Shown: positions 1,767-21,032, counted from the first letter of the stretch. The stretch is DNA of 64,000 bases from Oscillospiraceae bacterium (GCA_015065845.1 SVPQ01000007.1:3805-67804); one strand, 5' to 3'. A program made the numbers and translations. The notes: generated by a model not told the origin, from the sequence alone.

Positions 1767-1778
1767 AGGAGTATTATT

Positions 1779-3827: not shown

Positions 3828-3839
3828 AGGCGTATTATT

Positions 3840-4115
3840 ATGAGTGATATTAAATATTTTGTAATTGAAAATGGTGTGCTTAAAAAGTACAAAGGTAACG
3901 ATGCAGAAGTTGTTATTCCAGAGGGTGTAACAAGTATAGGTTATGGTGCGTTTTATAGTTGTGAAAACCTCACCACAATCACAATCCCAGACAGTGTGAC
4001 AAGTATAGGTGAAAGTGCGTTTTCTTATTGTAAAAACCTCACCATCCACGCCCATGCAGGAAGCTACGCAGAAAAATATGCAAAGAAAAATAAAATAAAA
4101 TTTGTGGCAGAATAA
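3840..4115 (+). CDS. Minimal BspA-type LRR protein (N-cap, about two repeats, C-cap; 91 aa)
   Basis: Same junction/RBS and the same caps ([17 protein letters not shown] ... [22 protein letters not shown]). Lies 20 nt upstream of the vWA gene. Confidence 0.8.
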
Positions 4116-4135
4116 AAAGAAAGAAATTTTAATTT

Positions 4136-5581
4136 ATGGATAATGAAAAATACGAAAAACTTAATAAGTTAGCAAAAGATGTACTTAATCTTTCAAGAAA
4201 TACGCTTCTTGTGAATTTAAGGTTTCTCGATATGGCTTTAAGTAGATTTCAGTACTTTAATTGTTCGGAGTCAACCTATTTTACAAACGGTGAATTTTTG
4301 TTGTATAACCCTGAGCATGTTTTAAAAAGCTACAAGCAGGAAAAAGAAGCTCCGGCAAGAGATTTTTTGCATATTGTTATGCATTGTATTTTTAGACACA
4401 TGTTTATGAATCCTAAACTTAACAGACCGTTGTGGGATTTAGCGTGTGATGTAGCTGTTGAAAACGTTATAAATGACCTTTGTTTAAAACAGGTAGATAC
4501 TGCGAGAGCGATAATACAACAGAAAGAAATTGCGAAGATTAAAGCTAATGTTAAAATTCTCACAGCCGAAAAAATATATAATTATCTTGTTGATAATTTA
4601 AGCGAGAGAGAAGCGGCAGAGCTTCGCGGATGCTTTTATGCCGATAACCACGAGGTGTGGTATATGACCGAAAGCGAAATTGCCGAAAAGTACAACCTCG
4701 TAGCAGTTGCGGATGGCAGCAAGCCTGATAACCCGCAAAGAGATAATAAAAGTGCAAGCGGTAGCGGTAACAAAGATGGCGACGAGCAGAGCAACAATGG
4801 TGATAGTGAAAACGATGGTCAGTCTGGTAATGGCAGTAGTAAAAGAAATGAGCTTAACCAGATGTGGCAAGAAATTTCTGAAAGAATGCAGACAGACCTT
4901 GAAACCTTCTCGAAAGAACAAGGCGACAAAGCCGGTGGTCTTGTGCAGAATCTTAAGGCGGTAAATCGTGAGAAATATGACTACACCGCATTTTTAAAGA
5001 AATTTGCAGTTTTAGGCGAAACAATGAAGGTAAATGACGATGAATTTGATTACATCTTTTACACCTATGGCTTGAAACTGTACGACAAAATGCCACTTGT
5101 TGAACCGCTTGAGTATAAAGAAGTAAAAAGAATTAAAGAATTTGTTATTGCTATTGATACATCCGGTTCTGTGCAAGGTGATTTAGTACAGAGCTTTGTG
5201 CAGAAAACCTATAATGTTTTGAAAAGTACAGAAAGTTTTTTCAGCAAAATAAATTTACATATTATTCAATGTGATGCCGATATTCAGGAGCATGTAAAAA
5301 TTACAACGCAAGAAGAATTTGATGATTACTTGAAAAATATGTCAATAAAAGGTCTTGGTGGAACAGATTTCAGACCTGTATTTAATACAGTCAATAAACT
5401 CATTATGGAAAAAGAGTTTACAAACCTTAAAGGGCTTATTTACTTTACTGACGGATATGGCGAGTTTCCGAAACAAAAACCTGACTACGATACTGCATTT
5501 GTTTTTATTGATGATGAGTACAACAATCCGGACGTACCACCATGGGCAATAAAATTAGTTTTACAGAAGGATGAGATATAA
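4136..5581 (+). CDS. vWA-domain protein with an N-terminal degenerate metallopeptidase-like domain (DUF2201_N/DUF2201-like architecture)
   Basis: C-terminal MIDAS-like motifs IAIDTSGSV (DxSxS), GGTDF and YFTDGYG. N-terminal FLHIVMHCIFRH looks like HExxH with the Glu lost. An acidic/Ser/Gly/Asn-rich linker (SGSGNKDGDEQSNNGDSENDGQSGNGSS) joins the two halves. Confidence 0.8.
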   Translation: MDNEKYEKLNKLAKDVLNLSRNTLLVNLRFLDMALSRFQYFNCSESTYFTNGEFLLYNPEHVLKSYKQEKEAPARDFLHIVMHCIFRHMFMNPKLNRPLWDLACDVAVENVINDLCLKQVDTARAIIQQKEIAKIKANVKILTAEKIYNYLVDNLSEREAAELRGCFYADNHEVWYMTESEIAEKYNLVAVADGSKPDNPQRDNKSASGSGNKDGDEQSNNGDSENDGQSGNGSSKRNELNQMWQEISERMQTDLETFSKEQGDKAGGLVQNLKAVNREKYDYTAFLKKFAVLGETMKVNDDEFDYIFYTYGLKLYDKMPLVEPLEYKEVKRIKEFVIAIDTSGSVQGDLVQSFVQKTYNVLKSTESFFSKINLHIIQCDADIQEHVKITTQEEFDDYLKNMSIKGLGGTDFRPVFNTVNKLIMEKEFTNLKGLIYFTDGYGEFPKQKPDYDTAFVFIDDEYNNPDVPPWAIKLVLQKDEI

Positions 5582-5587
5582 ATTACT

Positions 5588-6676
5588 GTGAGCGATAAAG
5601 ATTTAGTAATTATAAATAATAAGGTTATGTGCTACAGGGGAAATGATGAAAATATCGTTGTCCCGCAGGGTGTAACCTGTATTAGTGAAGATGCGTTTTA
5701 TAACTGTGTAAGTATTAAATCAATTACTTTGCCTGAAACTGTTACAGAAATTAAAGTTCTCGCCTTTTGTGGTTGTAAAAATCTTAAAGGAATAAATCTT
5801 CCAGATAAAATTACAACAATAAATTACAGTACCTTTAATGCTTGCTACAGTTTAGAAAAAGTAGTGCTTCCATACGATTTAAGGTTGATATGTTTAAATG
5901 CATTTTGTGATTGTAAAAAATTAAAACATATAATTTTACCGGAAAATATTACAAGTTTTAAATTCAGTTCATTAAAAGTGATATGGGACTATTTCACCGG
6001 AACAGAACATGCAGTAGCAATTAAATGTTCATTTCTGAAGCAGTATTTCCATTTTGTAAAAGAAGAAACAGAATTAAAAAGAAAAATTAAAGTGAGCAAG
6101 AAAAATATAGTAAAATTTGCTATTGAACTTGATGATGCGGAAATTGTAAAAAACTTGTTTTCACTTTATAAAAAAATCCAATTAGATGAGTTGGATGCTT
6201 TTTTAAGTGAAGCGGAAAATTCAGTTTCTGTTCGTGCATTTCTTCTGGAATACAAGAATTCAAAATATTCTGTTGCAGAGCAAGAGGGTTTCTGGAACCT
6301 TGAAGCAGAAAAATCGTTGGGGTTAAAAGAAAGATGTATTTCGGATTGGAAAAAGATTTTTGGCTTTTATGTGAAAGACGGAACTGCTATAATAACTAAA
6401 TATAAGTCATTGGAAAGTGTAGTAGAAGTTCCTGAAAAAATTGGTAAATATGTAGTTACCGGAATTTCAGAAAAGGCTTTTTCGGCTTATGCACCACGAC
6501 TTACGGATAAAGAAAAAATAAGCAGAAAAAAATTAGAACACATTACATTGCCGGTAACTATAAATAAAATAGCAGAAGATGCATTTTTCGGATGTACACT
6601 ACTCACTTTTCATAGTGAAGGAAATGATTATATAGAGCAATACGCAAAGAAACATAATATTCCAATAGAAAAATAA
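5588..6676 (+). CDS. Divergent LRR protein with the same overall layout (LRR, helical spacer, short LRR), GTG start
   Basis: GTG at 5588, 6 nt after the vWA stop. SDKDLVIINNKVMCYRGNDENIVVPQGVTCISEDAFYNC parallels the paralog N-cap. The spacer motif VSVRAFLLEYKNSKYS and the tail YIEQYAKKHNIPIEK are diverged versions of the family motifs. Confidence 0.8.
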   Translation: MSDKDLVIINNKVMCYRGNDENIVVPQGVTCISEDAFYNCVSIKSITLPETVTEIKVLAFCGCKNLKGINLPDKITTINYSTFNACYSLEKVVLPYDLRLICLNAFCDCKKLKHIILPENITSFKFSSLKVIWDYFTGTEHAVAIKCSFLKQYFHFVKEETELKRKIKVSKKNIVKFAIELDDAEIVKNLFSLYKKIQLDELDAFLSEAENSVSVRAFLLEYKNSKYSVAEQEGFWNLEAEKSLGLKERCISDWKKIFGFYVKDGTAIITKYKSLESVVEVPEKIGKYVVTGISEKAFSAYAPRLTDKEKISRKKLEHITLPVTINKIAEDAFFGCTLLTFHSEGNDYIEQYAKKHNIPIEK

Positions 6677-6693
6677 ATTTCAGGGGGTTAACC

Positions 6694-8205
6694 ATGAACA
6701 TCAAAGAAGCTAAAATTGAAATACAGAATGCTATGAAGGCATATTTTACAAAGGACCAATTCGGTAATTACGTTATACCGATTGAACGCCAACGCCCCGT
6801 TTTCTTAATGGGTGCACCCGGTATCGGTAAAACTGCAATTATGGAGCAGGTAGCTGCAGAGCTTGGTGTAAGCCTTGTTTCTTACTCAATGACGCACCAC
6901 ACAAGACAGTCTGCTATAGGCCTTCCGTTTATTGAAAGAAAAAATTACGGCGGCAAAGAGTATGACGTTTCAGAATATACAATGTCAGAAATTATTGCGT
7001 CTGTGTACGATATGATTGAAAAAACAGGTAAAAAAGAGGGTATTCTTTTTCTTGATGAGGTTAACTGTGTTTCTGAAACTCTTGCACCTGCAATGCTTCA
7101 GTTTTTGCAATATAAAGTATTCGGCAGACACAGAGTGCCTGATGGCTGGATTGTTGTTACTGCGGGTAACCCACCTGAATATAACAACTCAGTCCGTGAA
7201 TTCGACATTGTTACATGGGACAGACTCAAGAGAATTGATGTTGACCCTGATTTTGATGCGTGGAAGGAATATGCCTACAAAAAAGGTGTTCATGCTTCAA
7301 TAATTACTTATCTTGATATTAAAAAAGGTGATTTCTATAAAATAGAAACCACTGTTGACGGCAAAAGCTTTGTTACTGCCCGTGGTTGGTCAGATTTATC
7401 AGATATGATTCACCTTTATGAGCAGAATGATATTAAGGTAACAGAAAAATTTGTTGCACAATATATTCAAAATAAAAAAATAGCTAAAAGCTTTGCTACA
7501 TATTACGATTTATTTAATAAATATAAATCTGATTATCAAATTGACACAATTCTTAATGGTAAAGCAGGCGACGGAATTAAAATGCGTGCTAAAAACGCTA
7601 AATTTGATGAGCGTTTTAGTTTACTTGGACTTTTACTTGATGCGGTAACTGCAGAGCTTCGCACAGTTTGTGGTAGAGAGCTTTCATTGACGGAGCTACT
7701 TAATGCATTAAAGATGGTTAAAGTTGAACTTGTAAAGCCTACAGCAGATGCAACTTCTGTTATTGAAAAACAAATTGAGAAATATGAAAAAGATATTTCT
7801 GTCGGCAAAGCTGCTTCAAGCCTTTCTGTTGAAGATGAGCTTAAATTACGCTCTACAATTTCAGTGTTAGAAGAAATTATTGGCGTAATTAAAGAAAAAG
7901 AACCTCAGGACAATACAAAAGCATTCATTTTAATTAAAGAGTGCTTCGACAAACAAAGAGATGAACTTAAAAAAGGTGCTGATTCTTCAAGTAAAAAACT
8001 CTCAAATGTGTTTAAATTCTGCGAAGAAGTCTTTGGCGAGGGTCAGGAAATTCTCATTCTCGTAACAGAGCTTACTATAAGCTACTATGGTGCTCATTTT
8101 ATAAGCCGTTATGGGTGTAAAGAATATTTCGACCATAACAAAGAGCTTCTTTTCTACGAAAGACAAAAAGAGATTATAACAGAACTTGAAAACTTAGAGT
8201 TATAA
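6694..8205 (+). CDS. MoxR-like AAA+ ATPase (AAA_5-type) with a C-terminal helical extension
   Basis: Walker A GAPGIGKT, Walker B ILFLDEVN, sensor-1-like VVTAGNPPEYN. GGGGG RBS. Sits 17 nt after the preceding LRR gene. Confidence 0.85.
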   Translation: MNIKEAKIEIQNAMKAYFTKDQFGNYVIPIERQRPVFLMGAPGIGKTAIMEQVAAELGVSLVSYSMTHHTRQSAIGLPFIERKNYGGKEYDVSEYTMSEIIASVYDMIEKTGKKEGILFLDEVNCVSETLAPAMLQFLQYKVFGRHRVPDGWIVVTAGNPPEYNNSVREFDIVTWDRLKRIDVDPDFDAWKEYAYKKGVHASIITYLDIKKGDFYKIETTVDGKSFVTARGWSDLSDMIHLYEQNDIKVTEKFVAQYIQNKKIAKSFATYYDLFNKYKSDYQIDTILNGKAGDGIKMRAKNAKFDERFSLLGLLLDAVTAELRTVCGRELSLTELLNALKMVKVELVKPTADATSVIEKQIEKYEKDISVGKAASSLSVEDELKLRSTISVLEEIIGVIKEKEPQDNTKAFILIKECFDKQRDELKKGADSSSKKLSNVFKFCEEVFGEGQEILILVTELTISYYGAHFISRYGCKEYFDHNKELLFYERQKEIITELENLEL

Positions 8206-8226
8206 AATATTAAAAGGAGTATTATA

Positions 8227-10446
8227 ATGAGTGATATTAAAGATTTTGTAATTGAAGATGGTGTGTTGAAAAAATATAAAGGTAAAGAAACAGAGATTGT
8301 CATTCCAGACAGTGTAACAAGTATAGGTAGTGGTGTGTTTAGTGAATGTATAAACCTCACTACAATCACAATACCAGACAGTGTAACAAGCATAGGTGCT
8401 TGGGCGTTTAAATATTGTACAAATCTCACTACAATCACAATCCCAGACAGTGTGACAAGTATAGGTGTGGATGCTTTTAAATATTGTGAAAATCTTACAA
8501 CAATTACCATCCTAGACAGTGTGACAAGTATAGGTGGTGGTGCATTTTATGGATGTAGCAGCCTCACCGCAATTACAATACCGGATAATGTGACAAGTAT
8601 AGGTAAAAATGCTTTTTTTAGCACATCTTACTATAAGAATAAATCAAATTGGGAAAATGGTGTCTTACACATAGGTAACCATTTAATAAAAGCAAAAAAG
8701 AATATTTCAGGTACATATACAATAAGAAATGGTACAAAAACTATTGCTGACAATGCTTTTGAAGCTTGCGAATCTCTCACAGGCATTACAATACCAGACA
8801 GTGTTACAAGCATAGGTGCTTGGGCGTTTGAAGAATGTACAAACCTTACCACAATCACAATACCAGAAAGTGTTACAAGTATAGGTGTGGATGCTTTTAA
8901 ATATTGTGAAAATCTTACAACAATTACCATCCCAGACAGTGTGACAAGTATAGGTGGAAATGCTTTTTTTAGCACATCTTACTATAATAATAAATCAAAT
9001 TGGGAAAAAGGTGTCTTACACATAGGTAACCATTTAATAAAAGCAAAAAAGAATATTCCAGGTACATATACAATAAGAAATGGTACAAAAACTATTGCTG
9101 ACAATGCGTTTGGAGAATGTACAAACCTCACCACAATCACAATACCAGACAGTGTTACAAGCATAGGTGCTTGGGCGTTCGGAGAATGTACAAACCTCAC
9201 TACAATCACCATCCCAGACAGTGTGACAAGTATAGGTGATTATGTGCTTGGTGGTTGTAATAAATTGAACGTTATTAATCTTCCACAAAATATAACATCA
9301 TTTAAAGGCTCTTTGCTTGAAAGAATATGGGATGCTTTATCAAAAACAGAATCGAAAGAAGTTGTTTTAAAATCATTTATCACTCAGTTGTCGATTGAAA
9401 TGCTCAAAGATGCGGATTTGAGTAGAAAAATAAAAACAAACAAAAAGTTGATAATTGATAATATAATAAAAAATGATGATGCAGAAGCATTAGCCAAACT
9501 TTTAAACTTGTATAAAACAATTAAGATAGATGAACTTAACGAATATATTGAAAATGCGAAAGATTCAGTAAGTGTTTTAGCATTCCTTTTAGATTATAAA
9601 AATAAAAATTATACAATCGAAAAACAAGAAAAACACGAAAATGATAAGCTTGATAAAGAACTTGGGCTTAAAGAGAGAACACTTGCCGAATGGAAGAAAA
9701 TTTATTCATTTGATGTAATTGATGTAAATGGTGCCAAAGCAACTATTACAGGATATAAAGGCGTAGATTTAAATGTAATTATTCCTTCAAATATTGATAA
9801 GTATAAAGTTATAGCAATTGCAGACTATGCTTTTAGTACAGAGGCAAAAGGTGTAAGAAAAGACATAAAAGAAATAAGAAGAAAAATAGAGTCTATTGTT
9901 ATACCGGAAAGTGTAGTACGTATAGGTAATTATGCGTTTTCTGGATGTGCAAACCTCACTACAATTACCATCCCAGACAGCGTGAGAAAAATAGGTGGAT
10001 ATTCGTTTTCTGGATGTAAAAACCTCACCGCAATCACAATACCTGACGGTGTGAGAAGTATAGGTGATAGGGCGTTTGAAGAATGTACAAACCTTACCAC
10101 AATCACAATACCGGACGGTGTTACAAGTATAGGTGAATATTCGTTTTCTGGATGTGAAAATCTCACCACAATCACAATCCCAGAAAGTGTTACAAGTATA
10201 GGTGAACATGCGTTTTATAGTTGTACAAACCTCACCGCAATCACAATACCCGAAGGAGTAACAAGTATAGGTGAAGAAGCATTCCGTTGGTGTGAAAAAC
10301 TCACTACAATCACAATACCAGATAGTATAACAAGTATAGGTTATAGGGCGTTTTCTTATTGTAAAAACCTCACTATCCACGCCCATACAGGAAGCTACGC
10401 AGAAAAATATGCAAAGAAAAATAAAATAAACTTTGTGGCAGAATAA
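8227..10446 (+). CDS. BspA-type LRR protein, paralog 5 (739 aa) with an internal 351-bp-offset duplication
   Basis: Conserved junction and caps. The FFSTSYYxNKSNWExGVLHIGNHLIKAKKNI.GTYTIRNGTKTIADNAF insert occurs twice. The shared 700-bp spacer module is present. Confidence 0.9.
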   Translation: MSDIKDFVIEDGVLKKYKGKETEIVIPDSVTSIGSGVFSECINLTTITIPDSVTSIGAWAFKYCTNLTTITIPDSVTSIGVDAFKYCENLTTITILDSVTSIGGGAFYGCSSLTAITIPDNVTSIGKNAFFSTSYYKNKSNWENGVLHIGNHLIKAKKNISGTYTIRNGTKTIADNAFEACESLTGITIPDSVTSIGAWAFEECTNLTTITIPESVTSIGVDAFKYCENLTTITIPDSVTSIGGNAFFSTSYYNNKSNWEKGVLHIGNHLIKAKKNIPGTYTIRNGTKTIADNAFGECTNLTTITIPDSVTSIGAWAFGECTNLTTITIPDSVTSIGDYVLGGCNKLNVINLPQNITSFKGSLLERIWDALSKTESKEVVLKSFITQLSIEMLKDADLSRKIKTNKKLIIDNIIKNDDAEALAKLLNLYKTIKIDELNEYIENAKDSVSVLAFLLDYKNKNYTIEKQEKHENDKLDKELGLKERTLAEWKKIYSFDVIDVNGAKATITGYKGVDLNVIIPSNIDKYKVIAIADYAFSTEAKGVRKDIKEIRRKIESIVIPESVVRIGNYAFSGCANLTTITIPDSVRKIGGYSFSGCKNLTAITIPDGVRSIGDRAFEECTNLTTITIPDGVTSIGEYSFSGCENLTTITIPESVTSIGEHAFYSCTNLTAITIPEGVTSIGEEAFRWCEKLTTITIPDSITSIGYRAFSYCKNLTIHAHTGSYAEKYAKKNKINFVAE
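8608..9107 (+). repeat. Internal direct duplication in paralog 5 (8608-8756 versus 8959-9107)
   Basis: The two roughly 150-bp segments are near-identical by eye, at an offset of 351 bp. Confidence 0.85.
9244..9948 (+). repeat. About 700-bp spacer module, copy 2 of 3
   Basis: Aligns with 2496-3190 and 14044-14739. Carries a 9-nt insertion (attgatgta). Confidence 0.85.
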
Positions 10447-10539
10447 AGAGGATTATTTTGTGATATTGAGTGGAAATTTGATTAGATTTTAATTGTTATT
10501 AAATGATAATGAAGTTTTTAGGATTGAGGTTTTAGTCGA

Positions 10540-11175
10540 ATGAACGAAAGAAAAATATGTCCTGTTATCGACAATATGGACAAGCGTTATACATATGCAC
10601 AGCATAAGGGCAGGTACAGTCAAGCGATGAAATATGAGTTTTATTTCGAAGCGTTGATGATTGATTATGCTCTTATGGAAGACAGATTGAAATCGTTTTT
10701 GTATCATGCAGGTGTATTAAATTCAAGAACATCCCATAAAATTGATTGCAGTAAACCTAATAAGGCTTTGTTAAAACAAATTTATTGTAAGTATCGAAAT
10801 AAAACTGATGTCAATTTACCGAAGATTCAGAATATAAGCGGTAAGATTGATATTATAAGAGCTGTCCTTGAATGGGTAAGTAATACAGAACAAAATCCTA
10901 ATGATAGCCGATATCTTAGAACTTTAAAAAATCAATGTGAGTCTGTTGATATTGGCGATATGTTGAATACTTTGAAAATGATTGAAGATTGGTGTAAGTA
11001 TCGCAATGAGGTTGTTCATGCATTGATGAATAAAAATATTGATTCCCTGAGGAGTGTACTTTGTGATAAGGCAATCGAAGGGATGGAACTTGCCAATCGA
11101 CTTGATACCTATGTTCGTGATATGAAAAAGGGTAATAAGGTTCGTAAATCTGCAAATATGTGTATTGAAAAATAA
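10540..11175 (+). CDS. Small HEPN-like protein (Rx4H motif)
   Basis: KYRNEVVHAL (R at 11002-11004, H at 11017-11019) lies in the C-terminal third of an all-helical-looking 211-aa protein. No other recognisable domain. Confidence 0.6.
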   Translation: MNERKICPVIDNMDKRYTYAQHKGRYSQAMKYEFYFEALMIDYALMEDRLKSFLYHAGVLNSRTSHKIDCSKPNKALLKQIYCKYRNKTDVNLPKIQNISGKIDIIRAVLEWVSNTEQNPNDSRYLRTLKNQCESVDIGDMLNTLKMIEDWCKYRNEVVHALMNKNIDSLRSVLCDKAIEGMELANRLDTYVRDMKKGNKVRKSANMCIEK

Positions 11176-11200
11176 AAGATAAGACTTAAGGTGATAAGAA

Positions 11201-12277
11201 TTGCGCTATATAATCAACGATAAAAAATATCATTTTAAATCAGCTTTTGATACTGAAACAGGTGCTTATGTCCGTACCGGTATTCTCGATGAAAATGGTA
11301 ATGATACAGGTGTTGATCCGTTTATGGCTTCATATCCTCATTTAATAGATGTTGGCATTATGGGACACTGTATTCACGGTAAAACCGGACTTTGTGCAAA
11401 AGCAGGTATCGGATGTTATCAAAGCGGTATGTTAGTAGAACAACCCAATATGTCGGTTGAAGACTTCAGGTGGATTGCAGAACAATCCAAAGGCAAATGC
11501 AATCAATTTGCTCTCGGTGGCAGAGGCGACCCCGACCAGCACGAGCATTTTGAAGAAATACTTAAAATCTGTCGAGAAAATGTGCTTGTGCCTAATTTCA
11601 CTACATCAGGTTACGGTATGACCCCCGAAATAGCAAAGCTTTGCAAACAGTATTGTGGTGCTGTTGCAGTAAGCTGGTATAGAAGCGAATATACGTTAAG
11701 AGCAATTCAAATGTTGCTTGATGCAGGGGTAAAAACCAATATACATTATGTGCTTGGCAAAAACAGTATTGATGAAGCGATTGAAAGACTGCAAAATAAT
11801 GATTTTCCAAAAGGAATCAACGCAGTAATCTTTTTGCTACACAAGCCGGCTGGTCAAGGCACCAAAGCAAATATGCTTGAAGCGAACGACCCAAGAGTTG
11901 CAAAATTTTTTGCCGAGGTGGATAAACAGCATCCATTTAAAGTTGGTATGGATAGCTGTAACGTGCCTGGCGCTATCAATTTCTGCAAATCTATCTTACC
12001 AGAATCTCTTGATACTTGTGAAGGTGGCAGATATAGTTGTTATATCGGTGCCGATATGATTATGGTGCCTTGCAGTTTTGACCAAGAAAAGCGATATGAA
12101 GTTTCTCTTCGTGATATGTCTATCACCGAAGCGTGGAATAGCGAACCTTTTGAGCGTTTTCGTAACAAAATGCGTGGTGCTTGTCCGAATTGCGAAAAGA
12201 AAGAACTTTGCATGGGCGGTTGCCCACTAATGCCTGAAATCGTTTTCTGTGAAAGCATAAAAAGAAAAATAATATAA
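11201..12277 (+). CDS. SPASM-domain radical-SAM-like enzyme with a non-canonical N-terminal Cys triad
   Basis: TTG start with AAGGTGA RBS. C-terminal CPNCEKKELCMGGC is CX2CX5CX3C (12182-12223), preceded by CEGGRYSCYIGADMIMVPC, which fits the SPASM pattern. LGGRGDP is GGEP-like. The N-terminal cluster site reads HCIHGKTGLCAKAGIGC (CX7CX6C) instead of CX3CX2C. Confidence 0.7.
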   Translation: MRYIINDKKYHFKSAFDTETGAYVRTGILDENGNDTGVDPFMASYPHLIDVGIMGHCIHGKTGLCAKAGIGCYQSGMLVEQPNMSVEDFRWIAEQSKGKCNQFALGGRGDPDQHEHFEEILKICRENVLVPNFTTSGYGMTPEIAKLCKQYCGAVAVSWYRSEYTLRAIQMLLDAGVKTNIHYVLGKNSIDEAIERLQNNDFPKGINAVIFLLHKPAGQGTKANMLEANDPRVAKFFAEVDKQHPFKVGMDSCNVPGAINFCKSILPESLDTCEGGRYSCYIGADMIMVPCSFDQEKRYEVSLRDMSITEAWNSEPFERFRNKMRGACPNCEKKELCMGGCPLMPEIVFCESIKRKII

Positions 12278-12295
12278 ACCAAGGGAGTAAATAAC

Positions 12296-13447
12296 ATGAA
12301 AATTAGAACTGATTTTGTGACCAATTCAAGTAGCTCAAGTTTTACGCTTATGATTAAATTTGATTTGGTTAATGGTAAAAGTGTTGAGTTTTATGCTCAA
12401 GGAGGCTCAGGTGAAACCGGTAGAATTGACTATTTTGATGCTGAAGCTATAGTTAATGTAAGCCCTAAACAATTGGGTAACGCTAAAAATGTTGATGAAC
12501 TTATTCAATTGCTCGAAGAAGGTGTTGTTGACGGAGAGGATGAAACAAAAATTTTTGATGAATCTCGCCCCGTAGAAAGTGAGGTGGGTGCAGGTGTATT
12601 TGATGCCTACGATTTTGTTATTGAAATTCGTGAGAAGATTAAATCAATGGAAGATATAGAATCTATAACAATTACAGGTAATGAAGAAAATTATGAGAGT
12701 TATAAACGTAGTTACACATATAACCTAAAAACAAAAGAATATACAGGTACTGAAGACGGATATTTACTACTTGAGGTTGATGGTTCTAACGGTGGTGATT
12801 TATGCTTCGATGATTTGCAGTCATGTGTTGTGCAAGCTGATTTATCCGTGGAAGATGATGAGTATTGGGAAAAGGATTTTTCGGACCTCACCACAATCAG
12901 AATCCCAGACAGTGTGACAAGTATAGGTGATTGGGAGTTTGATGGATGTGAAAACCTCACCACAATCACAATCCCCGACAGTGTAACAAGTATAGGTGAG
13001 GGTGCATTTTATGGATGTATCAGCCTCACCGCAATCACAATACCAGACAGTGTAACGAGTATTGGTGCTGAGGCTTTTGCATATTGCGAAAACCTTACAA
13101 CAATAAATATCCCCGACAGTGTAACAAGTATAGGTGAAAGTGCGTTTTCTTTTTGTGTAAACCTCACCACAATCACAATCCCGGACAGTGTGACAAGTAT
13201 AGGGGAAAGCGCGTTCGAATATTGCTCAAGCCTTACATCAATCAATATTCCTGAGAGTGTAACAAGTATAGGTGAAAGTGCGTTTAAATATTGTACAAAA
13301 CTCACCACAATCACAATCCCCGACAGTGTAACAAGCATAGGTGCTTGGGCGTTTGATGGATGTAAAAACCTCACCATCCACGCACCTAAGGGTAGTTATG
13401 CTGAACAGTATGCAAAAGAAAATAAAATAAAATTCATAGCAGAATAA
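12296..13447 (+). CDS. Chimeric protein: unique about 195-aa N-terminal domain (MKIRTDFVTNSSSSSF...) fused to seven BspA-type LRRs and the family C-cap
   Basis: GGGAG RBS. The N-terminal domain resembles nothing else in the window. From [15 protein letters not shown] onward it is a typical paralog, ending HAPKGSYAEQYAKENKIKFIAE. Confidence 0.85.
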   Translation: MKIRTDFVTNSSSSSFTLMIKFDLVNGKSVEFYAQGGSGETGRIDYFDAEAIVNVSPKQLGNAKNVDELIQLLEEGVVDGEDETKIFDESRPVESEVGAGVFDAYDFVIEIREKIKSMEDIESITITGNEENYESYKRSYTYNLKTKEYTGTEDGYLLLEVDGSNGGDLCFDDLQSCVVQADLSVEDDEYWEKDFSDLTTIRIPDSVTSIGDWEFDGCENLTTITIPDSVTSIGEGAFYGCISLTAITIPDSVTSIGAEAFAYCENLTTINIPDSVTSIGESAFSFCVNLTTITIPDSVTSIGESAFEYCSSLTSINIPESVTSIGESAFKYCTKLTTITIPDSVTSIGAWAFDGCKNLTIHAPKGSYAEQYAKENKIKFIAE

Positions 13448-13458
13448 GGAGTGTTATT

Positions 13459-15177
13459 ATGAGTGATATCAGAGATTTTGTAATTGAAAATGGAGTGTTG
13501 AAAAAATATACAGGTAATGAAAAAGAGGTTGTCATTCCAGAGGGCGTAACAAGCATAGGTGAAAATGCGTTCTGGTGGTGTAAAAACCTCACTACAATCA
13601 CAATACCTGACAGTGTAACAAGCATAGGTGCTTGGGCGTTTAAATATTGTACAAATCTCACTACAATCACAATACCAGACAGTGTTACAAGTATAGGTTA
13701 TGGTGCGTTTTCTGAATGTGAAAACCTCACCGCAATTACAACAATCCCGGACAGTGTGACAAGTATAGGTGGAAATGCGTTCTGGGGTTGTAAAGGGCTT
13801 GCAGATAAAAAAGGTTTTGTAATTATAAACGGAACTTTATATTATTACTGCGGTTTCGAAAAAAATGTGGTTATACCTGAGGGTGTAACAAGTATAGGTG
13901 ATAGTGCATTTGAAAATTGTTCATCTCTTACCACAATTACAATACCAGATAGTGTGACAAGTATAGGCGACAGTGCGTTTTCTTATTGTAAAAACCTCAC
14001 TACAATCACAATCCCTGACAGTGTGAAAAGTATGGGTAAAGATGTGCTTGGTGGTTGTAATAAATTGAATGTTATTAATCTTCCACAAAATATAACATCG
14101 TTTAAAGGTTCTTCTCTTGAAATAATATGGGATGCTTTATCAAAAACAGAATCGAAAGAAGTTGTTTTAAAATCATTTATCACTCAGTTACCGATTGATG
14201 TACTTAATGATGCAGATTTAAGCAAAAAAATAAAAGCAAATAAAAAACTAATTATTGATTGTATAATGAAAAATGACGAAGCAGAAGCTTTAGAAAAATT
14301 TTTCAGCTTATATAAAACAATTAAGTTTGATGAGATTAATGAATACATAGAAAAAGCAAAAGATTCTGTAAATGTTTCAGCGTTTCTTTTGGATTATAAA
14401 AATAAGAATTACACAGTTGAAAAACAAGAAAAGCACGAAAATGATAAGCTTGATAAAGAACTTGGGCTTAAAGAGAGAACACTTGCCGAATGGAAGAAAA
14501 TTTATTTATTTGATGTAAATGGTGACGAAGCAACTATTACAGGATACAAAGGATTAGATTTAAATGTAATTATTCCTTCAAGTATTGCGAAGTATAAAGT
14601 TGTAGCAATTGCTGACAACGCTTTTATTCCTGAAGCGACTGGTTTAAGAAAAGACATAAAAGAAATAAGAAGAAAAATAGAGTCTATTGTTATACCGGAA
14701 AGTGTAGTACGTATAGGTAATTATGCGTTTTCTGGATGTAAAAACCTCACTACAATCACAATCCCAGACAGCGTGACAAGTATAGGTAAAATGGCGTTTT
14801 ATGGTTGTAGTGGCCTCACCGCAATTGCAATCCCAGACAGCGTGACAAGTATAGGTAAAATGGCGTTTTATGGTTGTAGTGGCCTCACCGCAATTGCAAT
14901 CCCTGACAGTGTAACAAGTATAGGTGAGAGTGCATTTGAGGGTTGTCAAAACCTCACCGCAATCACAATACCAGACAGTGTGACAAGTATAGGTGAAAGT
15001 GCGTTTTCTTGGTGTAAAAACCTTACTACAATCACAATTCCTGACAGTGTTACGAGTATTGGTAAGGATGCTTTTTACAATTGCGAAAAACTAACTATCC
15101 ACGCCTATGCAGGAAGCTACGCAGAAAAATATGCAAAAGAAAATAAAATTCATAGCAGAATAAAGGAGTATTGTTAA
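13459..15177 (+). CDS. BspA-type LRR protein, paralog 7, with a frameshifted C-terminal cap
   Basis: Conserved junction and N-cap. Shares a 150-bp identical block with paralog 2 (13751-13900 = 2000-2148). The tail reads YAKENKIHSRIKEYC* instead of YAKENKIKFIAE*. Confidence 0.85.
   Translation: MSDIRDFVIENGVLKKYTGNEKEVVIPEGVTSIGENAFWWCKNLTTITIPDSVTSIGAWAFKYCTNLTTITIPDSVTSIGYGAFSECENLTAITTIPDSVTSIGGNAFWGCKGLADKKGFVIINGTLYYYCGFEKNVVIPEGVTSIGDSAFENCSSLTTITIPDSVTSIGDSAFSYCKNLTTITIPDSVKSMGKDVLGGCNKLNVINLPQNITSFKGSSLEIIWDALSKTESKEVVLKSFITQLPIDVLNDADLSKKIKANKKLIIDCIMKNDEAEALEKFFSLYKTIKFDEINEYIEKAKDSVNVSAFLLDYKNKNYTVEKQEKHENDKLDKELGLKERTLAEWKKIYLFDVNGDEATITGYKGLDLNVIIPSSIAKYKVVAIADNAFIPEATGLRKDIKEIRRKIESIVIPESVVRIGNYAFSGCKNLTTITIPDSVTSIGKMAFYGCSGLTAIAIPDSVTSIGKMAFYGCSGLTAIAIPDSVTSIGESAFEGCQNLTAITIPDSVTSIGESAFSWCKNLTTITIPDSVTSIGKDAFYNCEKLTIHAYAGSYAEKYAKENKIHSRIKEYC
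14044..14739 (+). repeat. About 700-bp spacer module, copy 3 of 3
   Basis: Aligns with 2496-3190 and 9244-9948. Confidence 0.85.
14761..14898 (+). repeat. Exact 69-bp tandem duplication (2 units) inside paralog 7
   Basis: 14761-14829 and 14830-14898 are identical (atcccagacagcgtgacaagtataggtaaaatggcgttttatggttgtagtggcctcaccgcaattgca). Confidence 0.95.
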
Positions 15178-15448
15178 CGAATAATATCGGGCGGATAATT
15201 TAGCTGGTTGAGCCTTGACAATTTGACATAATTGATAGTGGTGGTATAGCGCTATTCGTAATGTGCATATTGAAAAAAATAAAAACTGCTGAAATCTTTG
15301 CCGTCAGGCAATTTCATTACAAAATGTTTCATTATGCAACATTTCATTATCGAAAGGTATCTTTATTTTTGCGTGAAGTTCAAAGGGTTTGAAATGAAGT
15401 TTGCTCCAGAAGTCGCAAAATGAAGTTGTGTTCTTGCGAACATAAAAC

Positions 15449-15481
15449 AAAAATCTCAAGTCTTGTGACTTGAGATTTTTT
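15449..15481 (-). terminator. Intrinsic terminator hairpin after the HIRAN gene (bidirectional-looking)
   Basis: aaaatctcaagtc-ttgt-gacttgagatttt, flanked by an A-run and a T-run. Confidence 0.7.
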
Positions 15482-15482
15482 A

Positions 15483-15971
15483 TTATCTTTTAAGTTCAAT
15501 AACAGTTTCTACAAAAAGCACCGCTTTTTTTGCGTGTCGGCTTCGCATTGAGATAGGCTCAACGAAGCTTACTGAAGCACTTTTAAACAATAAATGACCA
15601 TTATCATAAAGTGGGGCAATTGCGTTGCATAAATCTGCCGGTAAAGTACCTAAATTCTTATTCGATTCAGTAAATAACGAAAAATTATTTCGGTTGAAAG
15701 AATTTTCACCATCTCTTACAATATTGATTTTATCGTGGAGTTTTATAGATTCTATCTGCTCTGTTCTGCCCTCATAACGTGTGCCCATAGCTTCAAATTT
15801 TATTGTCATAGTGTCTGTGGCTTCATCATAACTTCCATAATACTGCTCAGGGTATTCCATAAAACCCGGTTCATAATAATCAGGACCTACAGTAAGGGAA
15901 TTCTCATATTTGTGATGAATTTTTTTTACTTCTTCAAGCAGATTGTTTATTAAAATATCATAATTATTCAT
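15483..15971 (-). CDS. HIRAN-domain protein
   Basis: GTRYEGRTEQIESIKLHDKINIVRDGENSFNRNNFSLF...LGTLPADLCNAIAPLYDNG fits the HIRAN pattern (Y-G..., NxxDxNA-like, lG.lp...a..lapl). The stop of the upstream gene lies 2 nt before its ATG. Confidence 0.65.
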   Translation of the reverse strand: MNNYDILINNLLEEVKKIHHKYENSLTVGPDYYEPGFMEYPEQYYGSYDEATDTMTIKFEAMGTRYEGRTEQIESIKLHDKINIVRDGENSFNRNNFSLFTESNKNLGTLPADLCNAIAPLYDNGHLLFKSASVSFVEPISMRSRHAKKAVLFVETVIELKR

Positions 15972-15973
15972 AA

Positions 15974-18913
15974 TTAATAAATTCCCTCCGCTTCTTCAAG
16001 TTCACGGTAATAAGCTTCTGCTGAAGAATAAAACCTGTCAAGAATGTTATCGTAATAGATTTCTGTTCCATGTAACCTATAGGTAACGTCTGACTTTTCA
16101 TTGATTTTACAACCATATCTTATCATTTCTTCCATAAGGTCATAAGTGTCAATAGAACCGTGTGTTTTAATAATCCACATTTCAAATGCTTTTATAGTAA
16201 CGGTTGTTTTTCCTTTATAGAGAACAATATTATTAAAAATCTGTTCAGAAGAATAACGCTCATCCCCCACAAGTATGTTTGCATAGAACCAGTCAGAGAA
16301 ACCGAGGTCAAAAAGTTCGTGCTCAAAGCCTGCTGATTTAATGGTTTTTATACTGAAAAATGTATTGTCTTCAACAAAATCGAAAACACTGTCGCAGAAA
16401 TTTTCAATGAGTTCATCTGTAATTCCGCCTGCCTCTAACTTTCTTTTACTTATCAGGTGGTCAGGGTCAAATTCAAAGACGATTTTATTGCTTTTGAGAT
16501 GCGTCAGCGTTCCTGAAAAAGCCTGTACATAAGCGAATTTTTTCCTGAGAGGCTTAATATCAAGAATATCGGACTTAGTTAAAAGATTTTTGAAATATGC
16601 GTCAAGTGAGGCGTGATTCTGGTAAGCGTATTTTGAAAGCACCGAAAAGCCTATATTTTTAAGATTGAACGGATTGATTTCAGATAAATCGGCACCAGGA
16701 AATAAATCCTTATATATTTTTTTGATTTCATCAATATAATAGAAATCCTTTGTAAGTTTTTCGCTGAGCAAGGTTTTCGCGTCATCACTCATAACTTTGT
16801 AGTCAACTCTGTAAGAACCCTGGTAATAATATTTGCTGAAATTCTTCCAGATTATTGCACCTGATTCAAATCCATATTCCTTGCGCACAAGGTCAAGTAA
16901 CTCTTCCTGTGTAAGTGGTGCATTGTTCATAATAAGCTCAGTAACAGCTTCATTTCTGTCAAATTCACCAAAGCAAAGTATTGGTGTTCTGCCACAACGG
17001 AAGTTATTGTAACTATTTTCAGGAACAATCTTTCTTAACAGATTATGTAACTCATACTGGTCTCTTATATCATACTTTTGCATAAGCTCAGGGTAATCAT
17101 CCATAAATTTAAGAGTTGATATTTCAATGTTTTCATAAGACTCAAAATTGAGTGTGTCAAATAATTCAGAATAATCTCTCGCATCAATGTCGTAATATCT
17201 TATTAATTCATTTTGTTTCCACAAAGCAATACGCGACTCTCCAAGATGATTTTTTCTTGTTTTTAAAACACCTTCAGTGTAGTAAAGTTTTTCATCATAA
17301 GGTATGTTTTCTGATTTGAGGAATAAGTTGAATTTTTCTGCAAAATCAGTGAATGAAATATCGTCCTGACAGAATTTACTTAAAAAATAGTTTTCAAGCT
17401 CAAAACGCTTTTTCTCAATCCACATACCATCAAGCAGGATTTTATTGCGGTTAAGGTAGTTTTTTACCTTGAGCTTTAAACCTATGTCAAGTTTGTTATC
17501 TTCAAGTGCAGAACGAAGGTCGTTTTTGCCTTGCTTTATATTACGCATATCCATATAGTTGAAAACAGCAGCATCAATACCGAACCATTTTTCTGCATCG
17601 CTTTTGTCAAAAGCGTATGTGCTGAAAAAGATTTCGTAGTAATCTTCATCAAAGCAAGCGACACCAGTTTCCTCTTTGCACTGGATACAAAGCTTGTTAA
17701 AATCTCTTTTTTCAATCTGTCGGATTCTTTCTCTTGTTACGTTGAATTCAGTGCCGATTGATTCGAGTGTGGCGCCATCAAGACGCTTTTCAATAAGCGC
17801 TTTGCTTCGTTCATCTATAGCGCATGATTTTTTTAGATAATTTTTAAATTTAGGGTATTTGCGATAACAACGATAATCAACATATTCAAGTTTTTTATCT
17901 GCTATCATTCTGCCTATTACACTTTTCAGACGACTTTCATCAACGTCAATTGGTAAATGCAGATTGTCGGTAAAATCTTTGAAGCTGAAGCCACGGAATT
18001 TATTATTTGCATACAACTCAAGAATGCTTTTACTGATTTCTTCTTCGGTAATAATAGCAGAAGAATCACCATCACAGAAAGCAAGAATTCTGGCTCTATG
18101 CTGCTCAAGATATTCTTTTCGCTTTTCGAGAATATTATCAACCGAGCCTTTTCCCATTGCAGGCATTCTGTAAAATTCTGCTTCAGATATAAAAATAATT
18201 TCGCTAAGATAAGAATAGCCAGCTTTACGAAGTTGATTTTTTGGTCGGTTTTCAATATTCCAGTCACCAATGAAAATATCGTTTGTGATTACATAAGAAC
18301 GTATTTTTTCTCTGTTGGCAGGTGAGTGGAGAATATCAAAAACAGTGTTTGTGGGATTTAAAGATTTTTTTATTGATTCATTGAATGCTGTAATGATATT
18401 GTCTTTTTGTGTTTCAACGTAAACAGTACAGCTTGTGGTTATTTCAGTAGCGGTGGAAATATCCATCATTTTAATGCTCATTAAATCATTTTTGTCTTCA
18501 AAAAGAATATCTTTAATAAATTTCTTACCAGCAAACATAAGAAGATTGTAAGCTTTTGAAGAAATATCAGAAAGGACGTTCAGTTCTGTGTTTGCTGCAT
18601 TGAAAAATTCTTTTATAAATTCTTTGCCACAGTCGGTTTTAGCCCATTCATAAAAATTGTCATCATTAAGCTCTGGCACGTAGCATTCTGCATCTTCATT
18701 GACGGTTGATTCAAAGTTGGCATTAGCATAAATATTAATTGTTTCAGCAACTTCGTTAACAGATTTTTCTCCCATATTAGGAAGATTCTGGAGTTCGCCT
18801 TTTTTGTAAAAAGCTACCATTTCACCGAATGTGGAAATACCGGCTCTGTGCAGACAATTCCTTGTGCGCACTGATAAATTTAATTCATCTATAGATAAAA
18901 CATTGATATCCAT
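15974..18913 (-). CDS. Large (979 aa) multi-HTH protein: three RpoA alpha-CTD-like HhH modules, a sigma-70 region-4-like HTH and a long uncharacterised C-terminal region
   Basis: DELNLSVRTRNCLHRAGISTFGEM...GEKSVNEV (residues about 5-62), with similar modules near residues 110-160 and 215-268. ATLESIGTEFNVTRERIRQIEKR lies at 17696-17818. I recognise no catalytic motif. Confidence 0.7.
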   Translation of the reverse strand: MDINVLSIDELNLSVRTRNCLHRAGISTFGEMVAFYKKGELQNLPNMGEKSVNEVAETINIYANANFESTVNEDAECYVPELNDDNFYEWAKTDCGKEFIKEFFNAANTELNVLSDISSKAYNLLMFAGKKFIKDILFEDKNDLMSIKMMDISTATEITTSCTVYVETQKDNIITAFNESIKKSLNPTNTVFDILHSPANREKIRSYVITNDIFIGDWNIENRPKNQLRKAGYSYLSEIIFISEAEFYRMPAMGKGSVDNILEKRKEYLEQHRARILAFCDGDSSAIITEEEISKSILELYANNKFRGFSFKDFTDNLHLPIDVDESRLKSVIGRMIADKKLEYVDYRCYRKYPKFKNYLKKSCAIDERSKALIEKRLDGATLESIGTEFNVTRERIRQIEKRDFNKLCIQCKEETGVACFDEDYYEIFFSTYAFDKSDAEKWFGIDAAVFNYMDMRNIKQGKNDLRSALEDNKLDIGLKLKVKNYLNRNKILLDGMWIEKKRFELENYFLSKFCQDDISFTDFAEKFNLFLKSENIPYDEKLYYTEGVLKTRKNHLGESRIALWKQNELIRYYDIDARDYSELFDTLNFESYENIEISTLKFMDDYPELMQKYDIRDQYELHNLLRKIVPENSYNNFRCGRTPILCFGEFDRNEAVTELIMNNAPLTQEELLDLVRKEYGFESGAIIWKNFSKYYYQGSYRVDYKVMSDDAKTLLSEKLTKDFYYIDEIKKIYKDLFPGADLSEINPFNLKNIGFSVLSKYAYQNHASLDAYFKNLLTKSDILDIKPLRKKFAYVQAFSGTLTHLKSNKIVFEFDPDHLISKRKLEAGGITDELIENFCDSVFDFVEDNTFFSIKTIKSAGFEHELFDLGFSDWFYANILVGDERYSSEQIFNNIVLYKGKTTVTIKAFEMWIIKTHGSIDTYDLMEEMIRYGCKINEKSDVTYRLHGTEIYYDNILDRFYSSAEAYYRELEEAEGIY

Positions 18914-18924
18914 AATAAGTCATC

Positions 18925-20658: not shown

Positions 20659-20754
20659 AATAAAACCTGCTTTCAACAATTAATATACAAATTATAATGT
20701 ATTTAAGTCGAAAAAACAAGATTTTGTTTGTAAAATATAGAATTTACGTAAAAC

Positions 20755-20947: not shown

Positions 20948-21032
20948 TGGTGCGGGTGACAGGACTCGAACCTGCAAGGATCGCTCCAATGGGACCTAAA
21001 CCCATCGTGTTTGCCAGTTCCACCACACCCGC
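20948..21032 (-). tRNA. tRNA-Leu (anticodon TAG), type II with long variable arm, encoded CCA
   Basis: The reverse complement is GCGGGTG...ATGGG-TTTAGGT-CCCAT...GGTTCGAGTCC...CACCCGC-A-CCA. The cloverleaf folds by hand. Confidence 0.9.

Follow-up and report, generated by a model that had tools for sequence, protein, structure and literature searches.

Dedicated radical S-adenosylmethionine (SAM)/SPASM maturases have been described that act on peptides or, in a few cases, on a fixed protein substrate. A maturase gene beside tandem precursor genes with a conserved N-terminus is the layout of many clusters for ribosomally synthesized and post-translationally modified peptides (RiPPs), and QhpD-like radical-SAM/SPASM enzymes crosslink a partner subunit encoded next door, QhpD itself serving a single fixed substrate within a metabolic enzyme complex. 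Here we analyse a radical-SAM/SPASM-like enzyme gene and its downstream neighbour, whose product begins with a 16-residue tag, in a 64,000-nucleotide stretch of DNA from an Oscillospiraceae bacterium (GCA_015065845.1 SVPQ01000007.1:3805-67804; hereafter the window). A preliminary description had grouped these two with an upstream HEPN-like gene as three tightly spaced genes lodged in an array of leucine-rich repeat (LRR) genes; the three co-directional open reading frames (ORFs) were confirmed, with gaps of 25 nt (HEPN-like/enzyme) and 18 nt (enzyme/tagged gene). Systems that pair a radical-SAM/SPASM maturase with a cognate substrate family are already known. The present one stands apart from them by a portable N-terminal tag on large folded proteins, by phage-borne arrays and by an expanded cluster loop, and there is a real chance of new chemistry.

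Linkage of the enzyme to a portable N-terminal tag

The association was evaluated starting from either partner. A pattern search seeded with the tag, restricted to one genome per species, yielded 79 loci encoding proteins of 114–919 aa, and in many of these the match to the query was confined to the first 20–80 residues. The enzyme gene was present in 64 of the 79 loci, always on the same strand (64/64) and at a median distance of 24 nt; several of the 15 loci lacking it run into a contig end or represent a second copy on an enzyme-bearing contig. The hosts include Clostridia, Lachnospiraceae, Bacteroidales, Erysipelotrichaceae and Coriobacteriales, as well as Synergistaceae, Gastranaerophilales, Kaiserbacteria and Desulfobacterales. 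Starting from the enzyme, a search of IMG/VR returned 255 viral loci, and tags were checked in the best 80. Within 3 kb and on the same strand, 72 of these carry one to seven tagged ORFs (downstream of the enzyme in 66 of the 72), and four more carry variant tags such as MKFRMSFVTNSSSSSY, giving 76/80 in all. Clustering of all neighbouring ORFs from the genome (79) and phage (80) loci showed recurrence of the enzyme and tagged families only, with no third conserved gene; specifically, no peptidase, transporter, structural or secretion gene family recurs in the 159 neighbourhoods.

Across all fetched loci, 411 tagged ORFs were counted, and 316 remain once incomplete and duplicate ones are set aside (median 162 aa; 99% net acidic). 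Their first 16 residues follow the consensus M-K-[IFV]-R-x-D-F-V-T-N-S-S-S-S-S-[FY], and after removal of the tag the 316 proteins fall into 50 BLAST clusters of 77–919 aa. The tag is kept where the remainder of the partner is unrelated, as between these cargo clusters, and where the enzyme is only 33–36% identical, and the linkage extends over chromosomes, plasmids and phages of at least six phyla, the genes lying about 24 nt apart. Because the linkage survives divergence of enzyme, cargo, host and replicon type, which is the main evidence of this study, we conclude that enzyme and tag work together, and direct recognition of the tag by the enzyme is very probable. As judged by sequence comparison, the conserved unit is two genes, enzyme and tagged protein, and not three. 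The proposal of the preliminary description that the neighbouring protein, and its Ser run in particular, may be what the enzyme modifies gains strong comparative backing from this linkage across phyla and phages.

Two other accounts of a shared N-terminus bear on the same data. If the tag served, as a sorting or packaging signal, to direct proteins into virions or a secretion route, and the enzyme were merely a co-transferred neighbour, the arrays in large phage contigs and the resemblance to the capsid-targeting sequence of T4 internal proteins would be accommodated; however, the breadth and tightness of the linkage, the lack of hydrophobic or amphipathic signal character in the tag, and the absence of any co-occurring structural or secretion gene make such a role highly improbable. 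Alternatively, the locus could be RiPP-like, with the tag as a leader peptide and the remainder as a core that is modified, cleaved and exported, as one radical-SAM/SPASM enzyme beside tandem genes with a common N-terminus and variable remainders might suggest. Here, no protease or transporter recurs in the neighbourhoods, the cargos, which reach 919 aa, are folded and carry LRR, TIR or BRCT domains, and the 16-mer itself is the invariant part with no conserved core motif, such that we give this possibility very little credence.

Tandem tagged arrays, with proteins of 105–206 aa and a single adjacent enzyme, reach 10 genes in a Gastranaerophilales locus (L098, 4006–8767) and seven genes in a Kaiserbacteria locus (L087, 2123–4886).

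Sequence features of the enzyme and the tag

The window enzyme passes the cut-offs for the SPASM domain (PF13186, 32.0 bits versus 21.5; TIGR04085, 29.2 versus 27) and falls below that for Pfam Radical_SAM (PF04055, 23.1 bits, E=9e-5, versus 29.5). The earlier label of a SPASM radical-SAM-like enzyme therefore holds for its SPASM part, whereas the canonical CX3CX2C motif is absent and C57-x7-C65-x6-C72 stands in its place. Conservation was read from alignments of 57 and of 20 diverse homologues. Of the cluster-loop cysteines, C57 and C72 never vary in the 57 sequences and C65 is retained in 98%; L105, G106, G107, G109 and P111 of the LGGRGDP motif (GGxGDP in the family) are likewise invariant. 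This motif corresponds to the GGE-like motif that follows the second strand in radical-SAM enzymes, and by analogy it probably binds SAM. The seven SPASM cysteines, including the CX2CX5CX3C pattern and the final Cys, are each at least 98% conserved and are predicted to hold two auxiliary Fe–S clusters.

Homologues of the enzyme form 4530 clusters at 90% identity, the best 120 of which are 85–96% identical to the window protein. A phmmer search for a solved close relative found none, and the enzyme-family profile gave weak matches only, to the SPASM domains of the anaerobic sulfatase maturase anSME (4k36/4k37, E=0.004) and of PqqE (6c8v, E=0.012); none of the NCBIfam RiPP or other maturase models came near its cut-off. 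Plasmid homologues from Agrobacterium, Rhizobium and Rhodobacter, at 33–36% identity, carry a canonical CX3CX2C (CDKGCVFC) at the aligned place, and the Agrobacterium protein scores 52.4 bits for Pfam Radical_SAM, above the cut-off, which argues that the enzyme family is of genuine radical-SAM descent. Relative to CDKGCVFC the window loop has two insertions of 4 residues, and the window clade looks, from this alignment, like a loop-expanded derivative of the canonical enzyme. Yet another cysteine spacing, RCVCAH-KCKVDCYQ, occurs in the cluster loop of the Gastranaerophilales enzyme of L098. A relative with CX7CX2C and the same N-terminal hairpin region, at about 25% identity, is found in T4-like phages whose hosts are Klebsiella, Enterobacter and Escherichia (168 records), for example as p156 of Escherichia phage RB16 (L101, HM134276.1, 2932-4086). 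Among cultured phages, only such distant relatives were found, none with a tag gene in its vicinity, and a tblastn search of cultured phages with a tagged phage protein gave no match.

The third gene opens with a domain of about 195 aa that, as had been described, starts MKIRTDFVTNSSSSSF and matches nothing else in the window; neither residues 1–195, nor the enzyme gene, nor the HEPN-like gene has a second copy there. A search with these residues retrieved mostly stand-alone relatives of 175–225 aa and a few LRR_5 or HIRAN fusions, in the alignment of which (A1) M1, K2, R4 and F7–F16 are invariant against a mean column identity of 36% overall. The family comprises 787 representative clusters at E<=0.001, and the tagged domain nearly always starts at residue 1. 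The AlphaFold2 (AF2) model is confident for the domain as a whole (pLDDT 82.5, pTM 0.80) and not for residues 1–12, which lie below pLDDT 50; the best-conserved stretch is thus predicted to form a flexible arm at the N-terminus, exposed before a confident fold. Foldseek searches of the model against PDB and BFVD gave no match at E<=0.001.

Third codon positions and the choice between AGY and TCN serine codons vary freely within the tag (67 distinct sequences), which places selection on the peptide and not on the DNA. The same free codon variation rules out that the conserved entity is an element at the DNA or RNA level, for instance a recombination site or a regulatory leader. At the peptide level, positions 11–13 are serine, with no Gly, Ala or Thr replacements. 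This constraint bears on the main rival to modification of the tag, a pure adaptor role in which the tag docks only and the variable C-terminal domains bring the enzyme to targets, which it then modifies. An adaptor would be expected to show the same enzyme–tag linkage, and it would suit both the many cargos that are classical binding modules and the pairing of one highly conserved enzyme with many different partners. However, five consecutive serines, unreplaced by Gly, Ala or Thr at 11–13, are hard to explain by docking alone, and many cargos are small, acidic proteins of 100–170 aa with no recognisable binding domain, for which reasons we consider the adaptor role unlikely, if still the foremost competitor.

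The tag domain has no model in Pfam, NCBIfam or PADLOC, and none in these collections is specific to the enzyme family. Two PHROGs touch the families, 7293 and 7397, both without known function, the latter being the only match of the tagged domain among Pfam, NCBIfam, PHROGs and PADLOC. In public records, members of the two families are labelled "hypothetical", "radical SAM protein" or "SPASM domain-containing protein", and a full-text literature search found no description of an enzyme–tag system. The module is widespread in gut bacteria, plasmids and phages, yet apparently undescribed.

Cargo domains, the HEPN-like gene and the surrounding island

Fused C-terminally to the tagged domain are LRR_5, BRCT, HIRAN, TIR_2, Sel1, DUF6273 and propeller-like repeats. 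In the window, as previously stated, the domain is joined in frame to a normal LRR block and C-cap: LRR_5 (PF13306) passes the Pfam cut-off with 292 bits over residues about 200–360 of the 383-aa protein, and the block aligns end to end with window paralogues at 77.6% nucleotide identity (3262–3827, 566 nt) and 75.6% (9901–10446). The same order of tag, N-terminal domain and LRR_5 occurs in seven of ten long family representatives tested and in loci L001, L025, L038 and L057; the tag likewise opens the LRR_5 gene that lies upstream of the enzyme in L001-type elements. Given that LRR_5 fusion occurs in many divergent lineages, the window fusion represents an established architecture and not a one-off chimera. 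The earlier picture of a cassette that landed in an LRR gene and created a chimera is thereby correct in that this is a domain fusion, the closest relatives being mostly stand-alone, and incorrect in treating it as accidental. Full-length homologues that are commonly LRR-fused, which would speak against a chimera, were found in part, among the representatives and loci just given.

A 131-aa protein starting MK[IL]K[LM]DFVSNSSSTSF lies directly upstream of the enzyme in the alpha-proteobacterial plasmids of Agrobacterium, Rhizobium and Rhodobacter. On plasmid pAt of Agrobacterium tumefaciens Ach5 (L184, NZ_CP011248.1 16866-25855), an overlapping operon at 550–5002 encodes, in order, an 888-aa SMEK_N plus NACHT-like STAND NTPase, a 121-aa protein, the tagged 131-aa protein and a canonical radical-SAM/SPASM enzyme, and the same layout is present in strain Sta004, Rhizobium sophoriradicis and Rhodobacter sp. 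CZR27. The Ach5 pair of enzyme and tagged protein (WP_038496256.1 and WP_051489734.1) places the system in a tractable laboratory strain. The 888-aa protein matches the PADLOC models Avs2 (E=1.5e-21) and Aga_REase (E=2.5e-49), SMEK being a nuclease domain of short-Argonaute systems (PMC10810196). The Agrobacterium enzyme has a PADLOC match to pVip that is limited to the generic radical-SAM core (residues 47–154), and neither the Agrobacterium tagged protein nor the window enzyme or tagged protein has a match in PADLOC-DB 2.0. In one large gut phage clade (L108–L133, IMG/VR), accessory genes near the module, at locus coordinates of about 8.7 kb and 15–19 kb, encode adenylosuccinate-synthetase-like, RNA-ligase-like, kinase-HD, PAPS-reductase-like, DUF2828 and LemA proteins. 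Together, the TIR, HIRAN, BRCT and LRR fusions, the Avs2-like operon and the phage accessory regions point to phage–host or mobile-element conflict.

The 211-aa protein encoded upstream of the enzyme does carry the RNEVVH Rx4H signature reported for it, at residues 155–160, and R155, H160 and E47-D48-R49 are invariant among 22 homologues (alignment A2). The proposed HEPN fold is plausible, in view of the Rx4H motif and a confident, all-alpha AF2 model with seven helices (pLDDT 89.9), although neither profile nor structure search places it firmly: PF18735 (HEPN_RiboL-PSP) matches over profile positions 36–177 of 191 with E=2.4e-4 and 21.5 bits, below its cut-off of 28.4; five of the 22 homologues match this profile, none above the cut-off; and Foldseek against PDB gave no match at E<=0.001, the highest probability among the weak matches being that of Csm6 (6tug_H, probability 0.80, TM 0.44), with HepT at rank 48. 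On motif and model, then, the protein is probably HEPN-like. Its family comprises 108 clusters in which the EDRL and Rx4H motifs are kept.

The HEPN-like gene adjoins the enzyme only in the near-identical contigs L007–L012, which contradicts the suggestion that HEPN, SPASM and novel-domain proteins form a conserved system. A homologue at 66% identity lies in a MoxR/VWA island with untagged LRR_5 on both sides, one at 56% has an untagged LRR_5 gene directly downstream, one at 52% has TIR/DUF6273 neighbours, and those at 44–48% have unrelated neighbour genes; neither enzyme nor tag was found at any of these loci. The HEPN-like gene therefore belongs with the LRR_5/TIR island genes, and it is probably an RNase of the surrounding LRR_5/MoxR-VWA island that stands upstream by chance in this lineage. 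Compared with the HEPN–LRR_5 layout of L187, it looks as if enzyme and tagged domain had been joined to the LRR_5 gene downstream of the HEPN-like gene. The insertion idea thus survives in modified form, with a cassette consisting of enzyme and tagged domain and excluding the HEPN-like gene. At two loci (L189/L190, 429–4991), large TIR_2 plus DUF6273 proteins, one with ferredoxin-type 4Fe-4S domains, are encoded directly upstream of a HEPN-like homologue, and a PhD/ParE toxin–antitoxin pair lies downstream.

These neighbourhoods also bear on a three-component toxin or abortive-infection system, in which the SPASM enzyme would control the HEPN RNase via the modified novel-domain protein or a small molecule. 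Tight spacing, gene order kept within the near-identical contigs, and nuclease or TIR effectors paired with the module in other lineages would be in keeping with such a system, as would a mini-HEPN of 146–150 aa with EDRL and Rx4H (weak partial matches) near the module in L023, L026 and L074, which leaves room for a loose functional association. Apart from the mini-HEPN in those three loci, however, a HEPN-like gene stands beside the pair in none of the 79 genome loci, no third family recurs across the 80 phage loci, and the homologues at 44–66% identity lack enzyme and tag. We regard a three-component system as improbable.

The features of the module and its flanks are collected in Table 1. 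The remnant of an LRR-paralogue junction proposed upstream of the HEPN-like gene bears a visible resemblance to the canonical junction and is in register with the stop codon, but its position was one base off, and its best local alignment score of 24 was matched in 100 of 1000 shuffles; as it is not demonstrably above chance, we treat it as suggestive only. The enzyme stop and the ATG of the tagged gene share a frame, six codons apart (12275–12298), with an AAGGGAG ribosome-binding site between them, and this shared frame is probably incidental. Two terminator-like sites were found in 8000–15600, the perfect 14-bp hairpin at 15449–15480 between two convergent gene blocks and a weak 5-pair stem at 15298–15311; both lie downstream of the last + strand gene, and none was found before the end of that gene in the region scanned. 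The GC content of the module is 0.33–0.38 throughout, with no compositional anomaly, and an Rfam scan of the window returned three tRNAs and nothing else.

Table 1. Positions in the window of the enzyme–tag module, the HEPN-like gene and flanking features
Feature	Position	Strand	Basis or detail
Untagged LRR_5 paralogue, upstream context	8227-10446	+	ORF and translation
Proposed decayed LRR-paralogue junction	10444-10473	+	stop codon, ribosome-binding-site-like GAGG, GTGATATTGAG
HEPN-like gene	10540-11175	+	211 aa
RNEVVH, Rx4H motif, R155-H160	11002-11019	+	alignment A2
Radical-SAM/SPASM enzyme gene	11201-12277	+	358 aa, TTG start
Non-canonical cluster loop C57-x7-C65-x6-C72 (GHCIHGKTGLCAKAGIGCYQ)	11369-11416	+	alignment of 57 homologues
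LGGRGDP, GGE-like motif, residues 105-111	11513-11533	+	
SPASM cysteines C273, C291, C328-x2-C331-x5-C337-x3-C341, C350	12017-12250	+	
Tagged-domain/LRR_5 fusion gene	12296-13447	+	383 aa
16-residue N-terminal tag MKIRTDFVTNSSSSSF	12296-12343	+	common to 316 unique proteins
Rest of N-terminal domain, to residue 195	12344-12880	+	no solved relative of fold
BspA-type LRR_5 block and C-cap, in frame with tagged domain	12881-13447	+	Pfam LRR_5
Untagged LRR_5 paralogue, downstream context	13459-15177	+	ORF; LRR_5 annotation in identical contig L007
Bidirectional terminator-like hairpin	15449-15480	.	ends + strand gene run

The surrounding island spans at least 264–20679 and contains several BspA-type LRR_5 paralogues, with which genes for a DUF2201 VWA/metallopeptidase and a MoxR-like AAA ATPase are interleaved (4136–8205); such a DUF2201 VWA and MoxR-like pair also precedes the HEPN-like gene in L186. 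On the minus strand, a trio at 15483–20679 encodes a HIRAN protein (162 aa), a 979-aa protein combining an RNA polymerase alpha-CTD with sigma-70 region 4, and a Swt1-type HEPN protein (584 aa). The alpha-CTD/sigma and HIRAN proteins accompany the enzyme–tag module in L001–L006 too, and their genes may be markers of one mobile-island family. A tRNA-Leu(tag) gene at 20948–21032, minus strand, marks the right island edge, with ordinary chromosomal genes beyond, and tRNA genes are typical integration sites; the left end lies outside the window or at its start.

A possible mechanism and its relation to known systems

The reading that we favour, and hold to be reasonably likely, is that the enzyme modifies the tag and thereby controls polymorphic cargo proteins in phage–host or mobile-element conflict. 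The flexible tag would dock on the enzyme, possibly with residues 2–9, which alternate between polar and hydrophobic, as a strand. A tag residue would then be modified by radical chemistry, the invariant Ser run N10–S15 being the likeliest target and F7-x-T9 an alternative site, while the two SPASM clusters would carry electrons, as in anaerobic sulfatase maturase. Such a modification could mature a polymorphic group of acidic, cytoplasmic cargo proteins, or turn them on or off: in the window a BspA-type LRR binding module, and elsewhere HIRAN, BRCT, TIR, Sel1, propeller or small phage proteins, all of which might act in phage–host or mobile-element conflict. Taken by itself, covalent modification of the tag falls just on the probable side, and any specific chemistry is much less assured.

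Several observations weigh against this interpretation. The substrate role and chemistry of the tag are deduced from sequence patterns; the window enzyme has no CX3CX2C motif and does not reach the Radical_SAM cut-off, such that SAM cleavage is putative for its clade; and the anSME profile match, at E=0.004, is weak and confined to the SPASM domain. In addition, nine of the 79 tag loci have no enzyme despite more than 3 kb of flank on both sides, which would require action in trans or enzyme-independent copies. Finally, the genomic context fits defence and counter-defence alike, and does not indicate which side the module serves.

A bolder form of the proposal, which we offer tentatively, is a hitherto unrecognised protein-tagging system of phage–host conflict, in which M-K-[IFV]-[RK]-x-D-F-V-[TS]-N-S-S-S-[ST]-S-[FY] would mark dozens of unrelated effectors, sensors or inhibitors, to be armed or disarmed by an enzyme-made modification. 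The modification could be new, for example serine-derived aldehydes or a crosslink, and one tag would be in use by phages, conjugative plasmids and defence islands, from Clostridia to Agrobacterium and candidate phyla radiation (CPR) bacteria. The interest of the pair lies in one very conserved enzyme being tied to a portable 16-residue tag on at least 50 unrelated cargo families, across phage contigs, gut and rumen Clostridia and Bacteroidales, CPR bacteria and Agrobacterium plasmids. If the tag is modified, this would constitute a new protein modification used in phage–host conflict, a means to annotate "hypothetical" phage genes by the hundred, and possibly a genetically encoded tag for protein engineering.

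Among described systems, anSME (PDB 4K36-4K39) offers the best solved profile match. As is proposed for the window enzyme, it combines a radical-SAM with a SPASM domain and two auxiliary clusters, and it acts on a protein and not on a free peptide, oxidising Ser or Cys in a short motif. The two differ in that TIGR03942 gives the window enzyme 14 bits against a cut-off of 349, that anSME has CX3CX2C where the window enzyme has C-x7-C-x6-C, and that the anSME target motif (C/S)xPxR is absent from the tag; moreover, the partners are not sulfatases, and none is encoded nearby. The RiPP maturases of the radical-SAM/SPASM type (SCIFF/ranthipeptide, NHLP/Nif11-associated, triceptide 3-CyFE) likewise combine a single maturase with tandem partner genes, and a cyclophane of the Omega-x-x kind on F7-V8-T9 would be chemically conceivable. 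In contrast to RiPP precursors, only the 16 extreme N-terminal residues of the tagged proteins are conserved, the remainder being folded and 77–919 aa in length, and the module shows no recurrent peptidase or exporter and no detected RRE/PqqD domain.

The remaining comparisons concern gene layout and context. QhpD-like enzymes resemble the present one in gene layout, whereas the tagged cargos here are polymorphic and are carried on mobile elements and phages. The HEPN-like protein has the Rx4H motif, a predicted all-alpha fold and a near full-length PF18735 match in common with the HEPN RiboL-PSP type, and differs from it in a score below the gathering cut-off and in having no L-PSP partner. 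Avs2-type STAND NTPases are connected to the module through Agrobacterium pAt, where tag gene and enzyme share an operon with an Avs2-like protein; to our knowledge, Avs systems have no radical-SAM partner, and the window differs from this context in having no STAND NTPase. Lastly, T4 internal proteins are polymorphic, small, arrayed proteins with a conserved N-terminal capsid-targeting sequence, which is cleaved by the prohead protease and is associated with no enzyme of the radical-SAM/SPASM kind, whereas the tag described here occurs in chromosomes and plasmids as well.

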